Below, piece by piece: positions 18,659 through 26,278 of a DNA stretch of 64,000 bases (its first letter is position 1; each line of letters starts with the position of its first letter). A program made the position numbers and the translations under genes. The DNA is from a virus (lineage: Duplodnaviria > Caudoviricetes), in the IMG/VR virus record IMGVR_UViG_3300033463_000011, positions 64,001 to 128,000 of that record. One strand, written 5' to 3'. Below the pieces are notes generated by a model. It was not told the DNA's origin and searched no databases. It saw nothing but the letters and a program-made list of their open reading frames with translations.

Positions 18659-19012
18659 ATGGATTTATATAATCAATTTATAAAATATTATGAAAGAGCA
18701 TTAGACAGAGGTCAAGACGATAAGACTGCTGCTGTTGAAAATATTTACAACGCTTATGGTCTCGATGAATCTTCTGGAGACATGTATGAGTGCTTTATGT
18801 TACTTCCAGAAGATGCACAGATGGAAGTTATCAATATATTACTTCCTGAATTAGAGCCGGGTGATATTGGATATGCAAAAGAGATGTATAAATATGCATT
18901 AACTTTAGGTAATGAGTTAGGCTATGGAGAGGAACCTAAGTATCCTTACTACGCAGGTATAGTTGATTTCTACGAAGCCCTCAAAGCAGAAGGAATTGAT
19001 TTAGGATTTTAA
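18659..19012 (+). CDS. Hypothetical protein
   Basis: ORF with GGAGGAG RBS. Confidence 0.6.
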   Translation: MDLYNQFIKYYERALDRGQDDKTAAVENIYNAYGLDESSGDMYECFMLLPEDAQMEVINILLPELEPGDIGYAKEMYKYALTLGNELGYGEEPKYPYYAGIVDFYEALKAEGIDLGF

Positions 19013-19030
19013 TTTGAGAGAAGTACATAT

Positions 19031-19075
19031 ATGAAGATTTATATCAAATCTACGTCAGATTTACATGAGAAATAA
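19031..19075 (+). pseudogene. Leader-only mini-ORF MKIYIKSTSDLHEK*
   Basis: Intergenic 14-codon ORF consisting essentially of the shared leader. Confidence 0.55.
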
Positions 19076-19119
19076 ATAACACAGAGAATAGCAGTTTAAT
19101 TTCTAGGAGGAATACATAA

Positions 19120-19305
19120 ATGCAGATTAAGAAAACAAAAAAGTCAGAAGTAACAGCTTCAAAGAAATCATCCGATAATGATAAAGCATTATCTCATATT
19201 AAAGCTGCAATCGACATTCTTGCTACACGCAATGACGAAGTATCCAAAGACAGTATCGCTAATCTTGGTGTAGTAATGTTCGATTTAATGGGCAGTGAAG
19301 AGTAA
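19120..19305 (+). CDS. Small protein with a basic N-terminus and a VTAS site
   Basis: GGAGG RBS; MQIKKTKKSEVTASKK. Confidence 0.6.
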   Translation: MQIKKTKKSEVTASKKSSDNDKALSHIKAAIDILATRNDEVSKDSIANLGVVMFDLMGSEE

Positions 19306-19424
19306 TTACAAACAGACAATTCATTTAGGTTTTATAACTATTAAGGTAAGAGCAATCCTACCTTTTTTAGTTTAACCTTATATACAATTATCAAATAATT
19401 CAAGAAATAAAGGTACAATTTAAT

Positions 19425-20048
19425 ATGATAGATGAACACGAACTCAATACCTTTGGGGCGGGCAATTCTCAGGATACAATTAGTACCTCAGATGATTTAG
19501 TAAATCCCCTTTTAAGAGAACAACAAGCACAGGCAGCTCAAATGCGAGATGCCCTTTTAACATGTAAGAAAAACGACATAACTTCTGCAAAAGTAGCGTT
19601 ACAAAACATTGCAGTATTACAAGTATACCATCAGGTCGCAAGAATAATAAGATATACAGAAGTAATGGATAGGCTTGAGGATAAGTTATACGCTTCTATA
19701 GATGCAAATCTTGCACAGATGGATGATTTTGATCCAGCTACAATGATGATGCTAACTAAAGTACAAGCCGATTTAATGAAGTCAATGGTTATGTCGCAAG
19801 ATTTACTCAAACCCTATTTAGACATAGATTTAGATGCAATAGCACCTCCTCGAGATGTAAATGAAGAAACATCATTTGGTGCTGCAATATTGCCTAAAGA
19901 ATCTCGAAATGCAATTAGAAACGGCGCACAGGCATTATTGACTGAATTACGCAAGACTGAAACCAAACAACCTGAAGCTGAACCTGCTGAAAACCGTTCA
20001 ACAAGTGAGGAACAAGATGTCAGACCTGATACAGCCGATACGCAGTGA
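19425..20048 (+). CDS. Probable terminase small subunit
   Basis: Helical 207-aa ORF overlapping the large terminase; call is positional. Confidence 0.45.
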   Translation: MIDEHELNTFGAGNSQDTISTSDDLVNPLLREQQAQAAQMRDALLTCKKNDITSAKVALQNIAVLQVYHQVARIIRYTEVMDRLEDKLYASIDANLAQMDDFDPATMMMLTKVQADLMKSMVMSQDLLKPYLDIDLDAIAPPRDVNEETSFGAAILPKESRNAIRNGAQALLTELRKTETKQPEAEPAENRSTSEEQDVRPDTADTQ

Positions 20049-20967
20049 TTCTTTAGATTACGAAGATATCATATCTCGTATTAAAGCTATATACAATAGC
20101 TCCAGTCCGGTTGAGCAGAATTATTTCTTAAAAATCCTTGAAGAACTTGGAGATAAAGGTTATTCAGAAACTCTTGAGCAAGTCTACTTAGTAGATTTCA
20201 AAGAGGTTCCTGTAAGTATTGATAGATTTTTATGCGATCCTGAATACTTAGGTGAAACTAACGATTGTGGTAATCAAATATATCCAGGTTGGTGGAAAGT
20301 ATATAGTAGTGTATTCGATGCTCAGAATGATATTTATGAAGTAATCTTATCCGGAGCTACAAGAATCGGTAAAACATCAACAGCAGTTTCAATGATGTGT
20401 TATATGACATATCTATTGATGTGTTATAGAAATCCTCAAAGATATTTCGGATTAAAGGAAGTTTCCAGAGCAACAATTGGATTTGCTAACTTGACCAAAG
20501 AACTTGCAACTTCAGTTGCTTATCGAGAGTATCACGATACACTGATACAATCTCCTTGGTTTATGAAGCATGGTACAAAGAATAGTAGTGCAACTAAACC
20601 AATATTCATTCCCGAAGGAAATCAGATAGAAATCGTAGCCGCATCAGATGCTGCACACTTGCTCGGCATGCAGTTGTGGGCTTGTTTGGTTGGTGATACA
20701 AAGATAACCACCGATAAGGGAATATTCCCTATATCTGAATTAGATGGTAAATCAGTTAATGTATTGCAATACGATTACGATGCGAAGAAATATTGTTATG
20801 CAAATGCTGATGTTGTAAAAACGAAATATGTTAGCGATACTATAAAAATTACTTTAGAAGACGGTACAGTCTTTGAAGGAACACCTGATCATAAAGTAAT
20901 GCTTGCAGATGGTACATATAAGAGATTAGACGAATTGACTGAGAATGATGAGGTATTTTCATTATGA
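20017..20967 (+). CDS. terL: Terminase large subunit N-part fused to split-intein N half (IntN 20683-20964)
   Basis: Walker A-like GATRIGKT, then ...GMQLWA|CLVGDTKI...FEGTPDHKV (intein blocks A and B), then a stop. Confidence 0.9.
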   Translation: MSDLIQPIRSDSLDYEDIISRIKAIYNSSSPVEQNYFLKILEELGDKGYSETLEQVYLVDFKEVPVSIDRFLCDPEYLGETNDCGNQIYPGWWKVYSSVFDAQNDIYEVILSGATRIGKTSTAVSMMCYMTYLLMCYRNPQRYFGLKEVSRATIGFANLTKELATSVAYREYHDTLIQSPWFMKHGTKNSSATKPIFIPEGNQIEIVAASDAAHLLGMQLWACLVGDTKITTDKGIFPISELDGKSVNVLQYDYDAKKYCYANADVVKTKYVSDTIKITLEDGTVFEGTPDHKVMLADGTYKRLDELTENDEVFSL

Positions 20968-21023
20968 ATGATTATTACAAGGATAGAAAATACTTTGTAT
21001 ATCGACATGTTGCGCCTAATTAA
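20964..21023 (+). pseudogene. GIY-YIG homing endonuclease stub (MNDYYKDRKYFVYRHVAPN*)
   Basis: Resembles the Y-x-V-Y-x-H-x-x-P-N start of GIY-YIG nucleases; ATGA-coupled to IntN. Confidence 0.55.
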
Positions 21024-21038
21024 TTCGGAGGTCTATTA

Positions 21039-22526
21039 ATGAAAGTTGCTAAAATAGAACATATTCATTATGATGACTCAATACCTGTATATGACGTTGT
21101 CAATGCAGGAGACTTACATAATTTTGTAATACACACTGAGGATAGTGATGTTATTGCTCATAACTGTCTCATGGATGAGGTAAACTTCGCACGTGCCGGT
21201 ATAAAAGATATTACTATATCTAAAGGCCAGATGAAGAAAATGTACGATACAGCTAATGCACGTATTACAGGTACATTTAAGCTTGAAGGTAGAATATATG
21301 GTAAAATGTTCACCTGCTCATCTAAGAGTAGTGATAATGATTATCTTTCTGACCACATAGAAAAGCAGATAGATGCAGGCAATACGCATATGTATCTCTT
21401 TGATGAACCTCAGTGGAAAGTATTACCTGCATACAGATTTGGTAAAGAGAAGTTCTATATTACTATCGGTGATAGATATAAGAGAGGTTTCGTTGTCCCT
21501 GATGAAAATTCTGATGAAGAACATTTACAGGAATATAGAAATGAAGGCTATGAGGTCCTGGAAGTTCCTGCGGATTATAAACCTAACTTCAAAGCCGATT
21601 ATGATATCGCTTTAAGAGATATAGCCGGTAGGTCAGTAGTAGGTTCAATGGGTTTCATTACTCAGGAAATGATTACTCCTAATGTAAGCACTACTAGAGT
21701 AAATCCTTTCTTTGAGGATTACTATGAAATCGGCGTAAGAGATAATGATACAATAGAACGTCATTTTCATCTAGAAGTGGTTCCTGCTTACCTCAAGCAA
21801 TTACCTATGTATATTCACATCGACTTCGCTGAAAAGTCAGACCATATTGGCATTTCAGGAGTAGTAACTGATGGTAATAAGACAATATTAGATATTGAAA
21901 CAAATAAGAAGATAATGATGCCATTCTTTAGACAGATGTTCCAAGTAGCTATCGGTGCTCCTAGAGGAGATAAAATGTCATTCCAGAAAGTAATCAACTT
22001 CATACTGTGGTTGAGGCGAAGTGGATTTAATATTGGATTAGTTACTACCGACCAATATCAATCTTCTTATGTAAGAGAGACTTTAGATCAGCAAGGTTTT
22101 GAGACAGATAAGATTTCAGTAGATAGAACAATTGACCCATATATCTCACTTAGAAACTTGCTTCAAGATCAGAGAATCGAATTAGTTAAGTGCGATCTGC
22201 AAGAAATTGAGATGATTAACTTAGAGAGAAATGGAGATAGAATCGACCACAAACCTCAAAGTAATGCAGGAGCAGGTAGCGCTCTACCATGTTTAGCTAA
22301 TGGATACAATAGCAAAGGTATTGGTAAGGACTGTGCAGACGCTCTTTGTGGTGCTTGTTCTACAGCTATCGCCCATCTTGATTTAGTACGGCCTCCTGCA
22401 AAGAATGTTATTAATGCAATAGCATCAGTGAATACAGGAAAGGGTACTGGAATGTTTCCCAATAGATATGGGACAGGAACACGTCAACCACTACCTGGTT
22501 TTGGTAGTCAATATAGAAGATTTTAA
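21039..22526 (+). CDS. terL: Split-intein C half (42 aa, 21039-21164) fused to terminase large subunit C-part
   Basis: MKVAKIE...VYDVV...HNFVI...IAHN|CLMDEVNF; nuclease acidic motifs HIDFA, TDQYQS and KDCADA; GGAGG RBS. Confidence 0.9.
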   Translation: MKVAKIEHIHYDDSIPVYDVVNAGDLHNFVIHTEDSDVIAHNCLMDEVNFARAGIKDITISKGQMKKMYDTANARITGTFKLEGRIYGKMFTCSSKSSDNDYLSDHIEKQIDAGNTHMYLFDEPQWKVLPAYRFGKEKFYITIGDRYKRGFVVPDENSDEEHLQEYRNEGYEVLEVPADYKPNFKADYDIALRDIAGRSVVGSMGFITQEMITPNVSTTRVNPFFEDYYEIGVRDNDTIERHFHLEVVPAYLKQLPMYIHIDFAEKSDHIGISGVVTDGNKTILDIETNKKIMMPFFRQMFQVAIGAPRGDKMSFQKVINFILWLRRSGFNIGLVTTDQYQSSYVRETLDQQGFETDKISVDRTIDPYISLRNLLQDQRIELVKCDLQEIEMINLERNGDRIDHKPQSNAGAGSALPCLANGYNSKGIGKDCADALCGACSTAIAHLDLVRPPAKNVINAIASVNTGKGTGMFPNRYGTGTRQPLPGFGSQYRRF

Positions 22527-22544
22527 TTAAAGGAGGAACACAAA

Positions 22545-24107
22545 ATGCTGTTCACAAAAACCGTTTGTAGTGCCGGTTCGTTAGTATATATCGTACCGAC
22601 CGGACTGCTTGTAACACTCCGCTACGATGCCCATGGAATACTTTACAAAGTGTATCAAGGTATCAATGTATTAGAGGAACTTCCTGAAGATTTCCTCAAA
22701 ACAATTGTACGAATGGGGTTAGTTCCTAATTCTATCAAGCTTCACGGAGGTACAACAGATATTTCTGGTGTATTCTATTCTAATACTATTAAATCCAAGG
22801 AAGGTCTTCTTCCTGATTGCGAATTTAATAGACTTGTAGAAGACATCAAATCTGGCACACCTGGATATAGATTCTATGTAGGTAATGTAGAAAGTGGAGC
22901 AATGCAAATAACTCCATCATCCATGCAAGCTTGGACAAAGATGGTAGGATTTGAATCGTTACCTTGTTGGGCAGTTCCAATTAATGCAACTGAAGAAACA
23001 CTTAGATCATATATAACAGATAACACATATATTCCTTTTGAATATCCTTTGCTTTCAGGATTCTTTATATTTGAAGGTCAGAATAAGGCAAAGTATTATG
23101 ATTTGCATTTAAAAACAGCTACAATATCAGAGAAACCCGAAAGATTTACTGATCATGACGGTTATATCAAATACGGTTTAGCTTATGGTAATAATGAGTC
23201 TATCAGCATTGATTATCCCGATGCTGTTAAATTCAATATTCAAAAAGGATCTCAAGTTGTTTTTGATGGAGATAAAATTATCTGGAGCGACACTAAATCT
23301 TTAGAAGATAAGTTACCTACAAGAACTGTATGCACATATTGCAACAAGATTCTTGATGTACCTTCTAATGGCCCAATGACTTGTTCTGATGATTTTTGTA
23401 TCTCTAAGTTATATCCTAGAATCCAGAGATTCTGTAAAATACTTGGTTTAGAAGAATTAACTATAGAAGAATTTGATAAAGCAATTACTAAACAGCAGAT
23501 TCAGATACTTCCTGATCTATTGTTGCTTCCAAAGTATTCTGATATTAAGATTAAGAATCATCTGTCCGAAGTACTTCTTGCAAGCATAAATGGCGATGTA
23601 GGAATGAATAGAGAATGGCTGGTTAAGTTCTGCAATAAATGTAACAATTCTTATAAGACTGTTAAATATTATTTTGAAGGTCCTAGAAGAATTGCAACTG
23701 AATTAGATATGCAATTGCCTCCGAGATTTGGTAATTGGTTAGCAGAACCTCGCAATCTTATTGAGTTAGATACAATAATGAACTCAGAACAAATTGAATT
23801 GCTTGAAGCAAATCGAATTGTTAAGTTTGACGGAATGCCTCTTCTTAGAAATAAGAAACTAATGATAACAGGAACATTTATGCATGGGTCTACCGAAGAT
23901 ATAGTTGCCATATTACAAAGCTACTCTGCAGAGGTTGTAACTCAATTTGATAAAAAGGTTCAATGCGTCATTGTTGGAGACATCAAAGAAAACATTGATG
24001 GGCTTGCTATTCAAGCTGCAAGAGAATTAGATCTTCCAATGTTTACAGAGAGTGAATTCTTTGCAAGATACCAGATAGACGAAGACCTTGAGAAATTCTT
24101 GAAGTAA
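22545..24107 (+). CDS. NAD-dependent DNA ligase homologue, apparently inactive, with C-terminal BRCT
   Basis: LigA-like layout with Zn finger CTYC...C...C and BRCT (ITGTF), but KxDG is replaced by VPTG. Confidence 0.65.
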   Translation: MLFTKTVCSAGSLVYIVPTGLLVTLRYDAHGILYKVYQGINVLEELPEDFLKTIVRMGLVPNSIKLHGGTTDISGVFYSNTIKSKEGLLPDCEFNRLVEDIKSGTPGYRFYVGNVESGAMQITPSSMQAWTKMVGFESLPCWAVPINATEETLRSYITDNTYIPFEYPLLSGFFIFEGQNKAKYYDLHLKTATISEKPERFTDHDGYIKYGLAYGNNESISIDYPDAVKFNIQKGSQVVFDGDKIIWSDTKSLEDKLPTRTVCTYCNKILDVPSNGPMTCSDDFCISKLYPRIQRFCKILGLEELTIEEFDKAITKQQIQILPDLLLLPKYSDIKIKNHLSEVLLASINGDVGMNREWLVKFCNKCNNSYKTVKYYFEGPRRIATELDMQLPPRFGNWLAEPRNLIELDTIMNSEQIELLEANRIVKFDGMPLLRNKKLMITGTFMHGSTEDIVAILQSYSAEVVTQFDKKVQCVIVGDIKENIDGLAIQAARELDLPMFTESEFFARYQIDEDLEKFLK

Positions 24108-24143
24108 CCTTGTATGTATTTATAAAGTTGGAGGATTCTCAGA

Positions 24144-25673
24144 ATGCCTAGATGGTTAGATAAATTATTTGGACCCCGAAAGCTTAACCTTCCTTCTCGT
24201 TTGAGAAGTACTGTTTGCGTAGGCGGTACATTTTACAAGATATCCGATCTTCGCGGAGATTCAGATATTGAAGATATTAGGACACAGATAACAGTAATGA
24301 GAGCACTTGCAAGAGACTCTCAAATCAGCACTGCTTTATCTTATTATGCAACAGATGCTACTACGCCAAATACTGCAGGCGACGTTATTTGGGCAACTGC
24401 AATAGATGAAAATCATCAGCAAGTGGCTGATATTATAAATACTTGCTTCAAAAGATGGCGAGTAAACGATTACGCAAGAGACCATATTCTTGAGTTAGCT
24501 ACAATTGGTCAGCTATATATGCCAACAACGGAAATGTATAGAGTACCTGGAGCTCATCAGAATAGAAACCTTGTATCTTTAGACGATAATACACTTCCTA
24601 ACATGGAATATGACATTATTCCGTCATATATGATACCGCCTGAGGATATTATTCACTTGTGGTATCAAGGACAACCTCAAGGTTACCTTTATCAAGAAAC
24701 TGCAAATGCTAATACTTCGTCGTTCTCCGGTGAACAGATAATCAGCTATCCTGAATCTTCTGTAATTCATTTTTCATTAGGCGGATTACTTGGAAACTAT
24801 AGCATTACAGGCACAGATAATCAAGGTAATGCTGTAAGTTATGATATTCAATTTGCAGAACCTATATTATCACAAGCAGTTCAGCCTACACAAACATTAA
24901 GTCTTTTAGAGGACGCTATGTTACTTTCTTCGTTAACTCGTACAGTAAGATTCATCAACGTAGATTGCGGTACAACCACTGAGGAAGATGAAATAAGACA
25001 AAATCTGCAAATAATTAAAGACATGATTGAGCAGCAATTAGCGCTTAATACAGCTACAGGTAATGCAGAAAGTTTTGTAAATCCTCAGAGCCCTAATAAC
25101 TTAATCTATCTTGCTAAAGTAAATGGCCAAGATGCTGTATCTATTACAGACCTTAACATGGGTGAGCCTACAGAAAGTGAGAATAAACTTCTTGATTATT
25201 ATCAAGATAAGAAGTTATCTGTATTGGGCGTTCCTAAAGAAGCAATGAATTTTTCCTCTGCTGAAGGTTTAGGCGGTGCAGGTGCTGTAATGTCACAAAG
25301 ATCTGCATTATATGCTAATCACTTGCTTCGAATTGAAACAGCTTATAAAAATGGTTGGCGAGATGCGCTTAACAAATACTTCGAATCAAGAAATATGAGC
25401 GGATTTAAGGATAAGTATATTCTTAATATGTCTCCTATTATCACAAACATGGATCAAGTACAATTTGAGAAGCGTGATGCGTCTATTCAGCAGGCAGCTT
25501 CACTTATTGATTTGCTTAAGAACTTAGGCGTAGAGGAAAATGATGCTTATAAGAAAGCATTAACTGAAATATTGACACAAGCATTCCCTCAAACCGGTGC
25601 ATCAGTTATGAAATGGGATATCAATGTTGAATCCGGCGGAGAAGAGGGCGAAGGCGGAATGGGAGGATTTTAA
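24144..25673 (+). CDS. Portal protein
   Basis: 509 aa with DSQISTALSYYATDA, LLEDAMLLSSLTR and YYQDKKLSVLGVPK, a T4 gp20-like pattern; lies downstream of the terminase. Confidence 0.75.
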   Translation: MPRWLDKLFGPRKLNLPSRLRSTVCVGGTFYKISDLRGDSDIEDIRTQITVMRALARDSQISTALSYYATDATTPNTAGDVIWATAIDENHQQVADIINTCFKRWRVNDYARDHILELATIGQLYMPTTEMYRVPGAHQNRNLVSLDDNTLPNMEYDIIPSYMIPPEDIIHLWYQGQPQGYLYQETANANTSSFSGEQIISYPESSVIHFSLGGLLGNYSITGTDNQGNAVSYDIQFAEPILSQAVQPTQTLSLLEDAMLLSSLTRTVRFINVDCGTTTEEDEIRQNLQIIKDMIEQQLALNTATGNAESFVNPQSPNNLIYLAKVNGQDAVSITDLNMGEPTESENKLLDYYQDKKLSVLGVPKEAMNFSSAEGLGGAGAVMSQRSALYANHLLRIETAYKNGWRDALNKYFESRNMSGFKDKYILNMSPIITNMDQVQFEKRDASIQQAASLIDLLKNLGVEENDAYKKALTEILTQAFPQTGASVMKWDINVESGGEEGEGGMGGF

Positions 25674-25921
25674 ATGAAAGCATACAAATCTTACAAATTT
25701 AGAATCTACCCTGATTTTGATCAAAAAACTAAATTAAATAAAACTTTTGGATGTGTCAGATTTATATATAACAAAATGCTTGAAGATAAGAAGGATTATC
25801 TATGTTAACTATTTAAACTTATATTGAACCGTAGGAACTACGGAGATAGCTCGTTGATACTTAAAACAGTAGTTTTATTGAGCGAGAATCTAATTCTAAT
25901 GTAATTTAGAAAGGAGTTCAC
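25674..25921 (+). mobile_element. Internally deleted IS605/TnpB mini-element (44-aa TnpB N-terminal stub plus right-end omegaRNA region)
   Basis: MKAYKSYKFRIYP...KTFGCVRFIYNKML (25674-25808), then ACCGTAGGAACTACGG.GATAGC, a hairpin and a GTTCAC end. Confidence 0.75.
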
Positions 25922-25924
25922 ACC

Positions 25925-26278
25925 GTGAGATCTTCAAAAGAACTAACTGACATATTTTTCAAAAACTTAAAAGATTATAACTCAACTAATTTCAAAACTC
26001 TTGAAAAGGCAGACCTGTCTAAATATAATGCTGTAACTCATAAAGCGTTTAGTTCAGTACTCACTCGTTATTTCATATTCATAGAAAAGAACCCAGAAAT
26101 AACTGATGAAGAAAACAAAGTATTATACTTTAAGCTTAAGTTAGACATGATTGGAACTTATTTTAGTCAGTATCCTGAAAGTGATACCAATTATTTAAGA
26201 GGATTTCAATTAGAGTTGCGAGATTGGATAAAAGAACACAAAGAATATCTAGAAGACACTGAGAGGGCTACTGCATGA
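25925..26278 (+). CDS. Hypothetical protein (head region)
   Basis: GTG start; its AAGGAG lies inside the mini-element end. Confidence 0.6.
   Translation: MRSSKELTDIFFKNLKDYNSTNFKTLEKADLSKYNAVTHKAFSSVLTRYFIFIEKNPEITDEENKVLYFKLKLDMIGTYFSQYPESDTNYLRGFQLELRDWIKEHKEYLEDTERATA

Follow-up and report, generated by a model that had tools for sequence, protein, structure and literature searches.

In the stretch of viral DNA analysed here (the window: 64,000 nt, positions 64,001 to 128,000 of the IMG/VR record IMGVR_UViG_3300033463_000011, Duplodnaviria; Caudoviricetes), the large terminase is encoded by two adjacent genes that carry the predicted halves of an intein at the break. Gene 1 encodes the N-terminal part of the terminase followed by an N-terminal intein half (IntN) of 94 aa, and gene 2 opens with a C-terminal intein half (IntC) of 42 aa that leads into the remainder of the terminase. 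It is proposed that the two halves form a genuine, naturally and canonically split class-1 intein in the sole large terminase of this phage. We hold this to be very probable, in a joint judgement that covers the split intein itself, the docking of its halves, splicing, the dependence of DNA packaging on splicing and an endonuclease-driven history of the split.

The coordinates and lengths of the two genes and of both intein halves in the initial annotation proved exact (Table 1), and the gap of 71 nt between the genes (20968-21038) and the separate ribosome-binding site of gene 2 that it had described were both found. The ATG start of gene 1 is preceded by GAGGAA and is backed by the 313-319-aa gene products of relatives; a GTG at 20005 in the same frame is the mechanical start of the open reading frame (ORF). 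Within gene 1 the IntN coding part spans 20683-20964, with the Cys1 codon at 20683-20685 and block B (TPDH, intein residues 67-70) from 20881; in the C-extein, CLMDE lies at 21165-21179 and a conserved CSSKSS motif at 21315-21332. The two genes occupy different reading frames, and the interval from IntN to IntC contains several stops in each of frames 0 and 1 and one in the IntC frame (TAA, 21021-21023), so one sequencing error could not join the genes. A terminator-like site was sought in the 71-nt gap and none was found.

Several lines of evidence identify the two halves as an intein. Residues 1-89 of IntN align with the IntN of Npu DnaE (4lx3, 4qfq; E value 6e-6), and the Pfam family Intein_splicing matches gene 1 residues 242-317 (E value 3e-6, below the gathering score). 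IntC alone, which is too short a query, gave nothing meaningful against the sequences of the Protein Data Bank (PDB). In an alignment of 52 IntN homologues C1, G66 and H70 are invariant, and T67 (at least 90%) and P68 are nearly so; Cys1 is also invariant in 15 contiguous (cis) alleles. The IntC of the window shows the class-1 features VYDV...HNF...AHN followed by Cys+1, and in 31 split homologues P16, V17, D19, V20, H27, N28, F29, H41 and N42 are invariant, all 31 starting with M(K/R) and ending with HN before a Cys. These catalytic residues stay while overall identity among the halves falls to about 45-50%. The insertion is in frame in a conserved host protein that also exists intein-free.

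The fold of the element was predicted for P0016:223-361, a cis relative with 77% and 73% identity to the IntN and IntC of the window, the two chains of the window being modelled only as a complex. With a 15-row alignment the prediction gave a HINT fold at a predicted local distance difference test score (pLDDT) of 96; single-sequence AlphaFold gave 31.7. The top Foldseek matches of the predicted fold are all inteins or bacterial intein-like (BIL) domains with TM scores of 0.7-0.84, among them Npu DnaB, Npu DnaE, Ssp DnaB, NrdJ-1 and gp41-1 at 18-30% identity. Judged from sequence and predicted fold, the identity of the element as a split intein is far beyond chance.

The relatives of the window phage carry the same site in several states. 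The sample of closest relatives consists of 120 terminases; a separate search was made with gene 1. Among the 120, 74 are intein-free terminases of about 667-690 aa, 13 contain a contiguous mini-intein of about 138-147 aa at the same site (15 over both searches), and 31 are C-fragments opening with IntC. The search with gene 1 returned more than 100 N-fragments, of which about 60 clusters stop at the exact residue at which the IntN of the window stops. That residue corresponds to the 3-11-residue linker of the cis alleles and to the IntN end of Npu DnaE, and the break lies between blocks N4 and F. Many intein-free relatives, for example P0005 (89% identity), encode exactly GMQLWA-CLMDEVNF, the very junction that the initial annotation had predicted for the spliced product.

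The two-gene layout at this site is also found in the cultured Bacillus phages vB_BceM-HSE3 (MF418016) and SP-15 (KT624200). In HSE3 the N-part ends in KDVF followed by CLTGSTKI, a 90-aa ORF intervenes, and the C-part reads VVVHN followed by CAMLDEIEF; identity to the window is 40% for IntN, 32% for IntC and about 32% for the exteins. In GenBank the gene products of HSE3 and SP-15 are annotated as 'intein splicing region protein', 'hypothetical protein' or 'putative terminase large subunit'. The layout is thus shared by more than 100 independent relatives and by HSE3 and SP-15, which argues against an assembly error.

The host protein is assigned as follows. From residue 1-2 onwards the C-part matches annotated large terminases of 216 GenBank phages (tblastn), gene 1 residues 122-188 match PHROG 17415 (terminase large subunit), and a T4-like portal gene lies two genes downstream of the terminase. 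The whole 200,233-bp record, for which CheckV estimates 100% completeness, holds one large terminase only and no second copy. GATRIGKT (Walker A), (A)CLMDE and the SSK motif do not vary among relatives, and an invariant hhhhDE pattern lies about 105 residues past Walker A; the intein is inserted three residues upstream of the putative Walker B Asp in this pattern. The only hhalign match to T4 gp17 pairs GMQLWACLMDEVNFA with GNSFAMIYIDECAFI (ACLMDEVNF with MIYIDECAF), the latter being a segment that we take to be the Walker B region of gp17. The placement of the splice junction within an hhhhDE Walker B strand, put forward in the initial annotation, is thereby supported as a motif-based assignment in the only large terminase of the genome.

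The segment between the two genes points to the origin of the split. The ATG of a 19-codon reading frame overlaps the IntN stop (ATGA), and its product, MNDYYKDRKYFVYRHVAPN, matches the first 19 residues of a 364-aa gene that lies between the intein halves in relatives L009, L010 and L012. The intact gene starts in the same ATGA overlap, its product opens with MxDY(Y/F)...YFVYRHVAPNGKMY(I/V)GIT, and it contains GIY-YIG (E value 6e-4) and NUMOD3 domains. In L009, L010 and L012 its last 14 nt overlap the IntC gene, which thus takes its ribosome-binding site and its Met from the end of the endonuclease gene; in relatives that have this gene intact, its 3' end contains an AGGAG/GGAGG homologous to the site of the window. 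L011 retains a stub that is shorter and different, and L005 represents a lineage in which IntN continues in frame into an HNH/NUMOD4 domain, with the start of the IntC gene at the stop of this fusion. With only the stub in the window and the full gene in these three relatives, the window fits step III (endonuclease lost) of the fractured genes of Dassa 2009, with a stub left behind.

Both halves appear to be maintained by selection. Among five split alleles the proportion of nonsynonymous differences (pN) is 0.15-0.30 in IntN, 0.03-0.18 in IntC and 0.11-0.20 in the exteins, and that of synonymous differences (pS) is mostly 0.5-0.8, near saturation; dN/dS among split alleles, 0.03-0.25, is a rough figure because dS is near saturation. 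The pN of the halves is like that of the exteins at near-saturated synonymous sites, which indicates purifying selection on both. In complex prediction the pair of IntN and IntC reached a score of 0.81, whereas the best of 3 controls had 0.01; 58 of 80 solved complexes and 2 of 110 mismatched pairs attain the mark for this score. The prediction runs agree in at least 99% of contacts, with a partner pLDDT of at least 87.

We propose the following route from gene to packaging enzyme. A mini-intein at this site would have been broken when a free-standing GIY-YIG homing endonuclease gene entered its linker, and the endonuclease would later have been deleted down to the 19-codon stub in the window genome; so reduced, it should leave the window copy no longer self-mobile. 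Gene 1 and gene 2 probably share a transcript and give separate translation products, after which the 94-aa IntN and the 42-aa IntC would dock into one HINT domain. Self-excision of this domain would use Cys1, the TxxH motif of block B, the Asp of block F, the His-Asn pair at the end of IntC and Cys+1, and the ligation of GMQLWA to CLMDEVNF would complete the ATPase active-site strand. Since the ligation would complete that strand, packaging should depend on protein trans-splicing.

A number of points weigh against this proposal. For the window phage and its relatives alike, trans-splicing is a prediction. The docking model may simply reproduce intein complexes whose structures are already solved, so that the pass in complex prediction shows likeness rather than binding. 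Both halves are acidic (net charge -7 and -6), unlike the complementary halves of DnaE, and only the acidic tail of IntN and the Lys/His head of IntC look complementary. On the side of the host protein, no solved terminase in the PDB was matched by phmmer with P0005 or by a 17-sequence profile. Since solved terminases could not be linked by sequence, the Walker B assignment is mainly drawn from the hhhhDE pattern, together with the gp17 alignment, which is weak (E value 0.11). Searches of Pfam and NCBIfam likewise gave no terminase family match, and megablast of 19000-26000 against GenBank phages gave no match.

It might be supposed that the halves bind without splicing and that the terminase works as a non-covalent two-chain enzyme held together by them, a reading on which the predicted docking, silent as it is on chemistry, does not bear. 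However, the residues for all four splicing steps are kept without variation across more than 100 split alleles, and an unspliced HINT domain of 136 aa would interrupt the Walker B strand only three residues ahead of the catalytic Asp-Glu pair, at a place where the intein-free alleles show that a continuous strand is needed. We regard such an enzyme as improbable. The reduction of the endonuclease to a stub, in a record that is a metagenome assembly, could instead suggest a broken terminase gene in a defective or decaying phage, with the intein halves as relics. Both ORFs are intact and have good ribosome-binding sites, the intein halves show purifying selection, the record is estimated to be complete, and the same layout persists in deeply diverged relatives and in Bacillus phages that form plaques, all of which speaks against decay and makes it highly improbable.

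There is almost no chance, finally, that the intein is really contiguous and that the split arose as an assembly or sequencing error. The linker of the cis allele L003 does differ from the window by a 62-nt insertion or deletion only; yet these 62 nt show homology to the 5' end of a genuine endonuclease gene that occupies the same position in relatives, the two genes stand in different frames with at least one stop per frame between IntN and IntC, and more than 100 independent assemblies as well as isolate genomes are split at the same residue.

The distribution of alleles suggests that the element is dynamic. On the C-extein tree the states none, cis and split require 38 changes, against 39.2 with shuffled labels, and near-identical exteins differ in state (P0019 split and P0077 empty; P0004 cis and P0009 empty). 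Since the intein state is thus scattered nearly at random over the exteins, frequent movement or loss of the element would have to be assumed in this phage population. On the IntN tree there are 11 state changes against 25 with shuffled labels, so that states are clustered; this tree has 94 columns only and many of its forks are unresolved, and the direction of change needs a rooted, better-resolved tree. The intein of the window belongs to an IntN clade of 66 sequences (90% local support), 61 of them split, and the five cis alleles of this clade (P0003/P0004, P0016, P0020 and P0024) stand at four separate places. The cis allele L003 equals the window minus the 62-nt segment (the stub) in its linker and retains, in frame, what was once the ribosome-binding site with the start codon (GGAAGTCTATTAATG, translated as G-S-L-L-M). 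L016 is similar; the linkers of the cis alleles P0020 and P0016 were read as protein only. The scattered cis alleles in a split clade and the linker of L003 suggest re-fusion. It is about evenly balanced, in our view, whether intein splitting is reversible in nature, with several cis mini-inteins being split halves re-fused after loss of the endonuclease, a path that is absent from the 2009 gene-breaking model. These data are most economically read as frequent gain or loss of the intein in the phage population, with several of the cis alleles re-fused.

Split inteins in terminases have been known since 2009, from a Lake Gatun locus of the GOS data with an unusual break and a 122-aa IntC (PMC2677866). 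AceL-TerL, GOS-TerL and the consensus Cat-TerL are characterised tools (PMC11766414), and TerL1-e, which interrupts Gaia gp2 of a mycobacteriophage in its Walker B motif as a cis intein, splices in a reporter (Kelley et al. 2016, PMC5050341). In view of these three reports and of the unremarked HSE3 and SP-15 alleles in GenBank, the initial annotation had overrated the novelty of the pair. On its possible use as a new orthogonal pair, also put forward there, the analysis shows that the nearest solved inteins are 18-30% identical to the cis relative. The atypical terminase inteins (GOS, AceL-TerL, GOS-TerL and Cat-TerL) resemble that of the window in that they are naturally split class-1 inteins with Cys+1 in the large terminase of big myovirus-like phages. 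They break after block A, giving an IntN of 25-37 aa and an IntC of 104-122 aa, whereas the window intein breaks in the usual endonuclease-insertion loop. Membership in this atypically split group was considered and rejected on the lengths of the window halves, 94 and 42 aa. TerL1-e shares with the window its position in the Walker B motif of a large terminase; by its description it is, unlike the window intein, contiguous, equipped with an endonuclease domain and inserted in a protein of another terminase family (terminase_1).

The closest parallels in organisation are the fractured genes gp41-1 to gp41-8, NrdJ-1 and IMPDH-1 (PMC2677866), likewise of phage origin, with an IntN of 88-105 aa and an IntC of 33-54 aa and so, like the 94/42 split of the window, canonical. 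In that set, as in L009, L010 and L012, a free-standing GIY-YIG gene lies between the halves and overlaps the downstream start, supplying its Met and ribosome-binding site, and the window stands at step III like locus gp41-7. It differs in host protein and insertion site, in the survival of a 19-codon endonuclease stub, and in that empty, cis, split, and split alleles with a fused HNH domain coexist in its phage group; gp41-1 or NrdJ-1 and the cis relative are 22-24% identical in structure alignment. Npu and Ssp DnaE, the best sequence match among solved structures, have the same break point and fold as the window intein and are about 18-20% identical in structure alignment; unlike it, they are cyanobacterial, reside in DnaE, have halves at distant loci and have oppositely charged halves where those of the window are both acidic. 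The HSE3 and SP-15 alleles have the insertion site and the canonical split of the window; they differ in their exteins, which are only about 32% identical to it, in the 90-aa and 230-aa genes between their halves and, in SP-15, in a block F reading YNNF where the window has HNF.

A full-text literature search, incomplete in coverage, returned no description of a canonically split Walker B terminase intein, and the genome papers on SP-15 and on the Listeria phage LIS04 mention neither intein nor terminase. What is distinct here is the canonical 94/42 break in a terminase, a site three residues ahead of the putative Walker B Asp with a sister register one residue upstream, and the presence of all evolutionary stages in one phage group.

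Further insertions were seen in the terminase genes of these phages. The intein occurs in two registers one residue apart, QLWA-intein-CLMDE as in the window and QLW-intein-C(L/C)xxDE, with exteins of equal length (compared at window 20680-20685 and 21165 with P0002, P0003, P0004, P0020, P0030, P0034 and P0036-P0043); the pair resembles the adjacent TerL1-a and TerL1-b sites of mycobacteriophages. A second insertion site in the N-extein, directly after SPWF, holds in P0174, P0181, P0192 and P0233 a related IntN that continues into a fused HNH/NUMOD4 domain, and these four form one group in the IntN tree; the matching site of the window is empty (after QSPWF, about 20557). In LIS04 (L001, OQ999172; 802-1982) the N-fragment gene is interrupted once more: the ORF of the N-extein ends at SHGLG and is followed by a gene for a 314-aa endonuclease, and about 200 nt later the frame continues with RDIF and then CLTGDSKI. 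The pieces are annotated as separate genes, and the interruption looks like an intron with a homing endonuclease. SP-15 (L015; about 150-330 and 570-1493) has a further intein end (VYDM...HNF...FVHN, then C) directly before the P-loop GGIGLGKS, and a gene annotated as Holliday junction resolvase between the P-loop and Walker B parts; its terminase is in at least three pieces.

Table 1. Features of the split large terminase locus (positions in the window).
Feature	Position	Strand	Basis
Gene 1: large terminase N-part and IntN	20017-20967	+	ATG 20017, TGA 20965-20967
N-extein of the large terminase, 222 aa, last residues GMQLWA	20017-20682	+	Relatives of 313-319 aa with the same start
Walker A GATRIGKT in the N-extein	20353-20376	+	Motif
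IntN, 94 aa and TGA: Cys1 block A CLVGDTKI, block B TPDH, last residues ENDEVFSL	20683-20967	+	Alignment with Npu DnaE IntN, conservation in homologues
GIY-YIG homing endonuclease stub, 19 codons (MNDYYKDRKYFVYRHVAPN) and stop	20964-21023	+	Match to the intact gene in relatives
Shine-Dalgarno GGAGG, 7 nt upstream of the IntC ATG at 21039	21027-21031	+	Sequence
Gene 2: IntC and large terminase C-part	21039-22526	+	ATG 21039
IntC, 42 aa, MKVAKIEH...PVYDV...HNF...VIAHN, blocks F and G	21039-21164	+	Conservation in 31 split homologues
C-extein of the large terminase, 453 aa and stop, opening with Cys+1 CLMDEVNF	21165-22526	+	tblastn to terminases

The terminase is flanked by two further genes that are kept in relatives. 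Upstream, a 207-aa ORF without family match (19425-20048) overlaps the terminase start by 32 nt; a counterpart of 201-223 aa is kept at the same position in relatives, so it could be a candidate for the small terminase subunit. Between the terminase and the portal gene lies a 520-aa protein (22545-24107) that has a BRCT domain at its C-terminus and weakly matches NAD-dependent DNA ligases of phages; relatives keep a protein of 504-533 aa in the corresponding place. Elsewhere, an Intein_splicing match of 49-51 bits, above the cut-off, was found outside the window at G000:C1:183577-184344 (L007:988-3699), and in HSE3 (L002; 380-898) a 172-aa ORF annotated as 'dCTP deaminase' contains an apparent mini-intein, with C-L-E-A-N-T-E near its start and YAHN followed by C near its end.

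The main value of the locus lies in intein evolution and in a source of new canonical split inteins, whose splicing is predicted. For protein engineering, the intein family provides over 100 naturally occurring variants of the canonical split type with Cys1 and Cys+1, 18-30% identical to the commonly used ones, together with matched natural cis and split versions and alleles in culturable Bacillus phages. In this group of phages of about 200 kb, a single site shows all the stages of the 2009 gene-breaking model: the empty site, the cis mini-intein, the split with an intact GIY-YIG gene, the split with an HNH-fused IntN, the split with a stub as in the window, and cis alleles that are apparently re-fused. 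With all stages at one site, the gene-breaking model becomes testable by comparative genomics. For the phage itself, an essential, single-copy packaging ATPase would be made only after two proteins meet and splice, which would make protein splicing a step of virion assembly.

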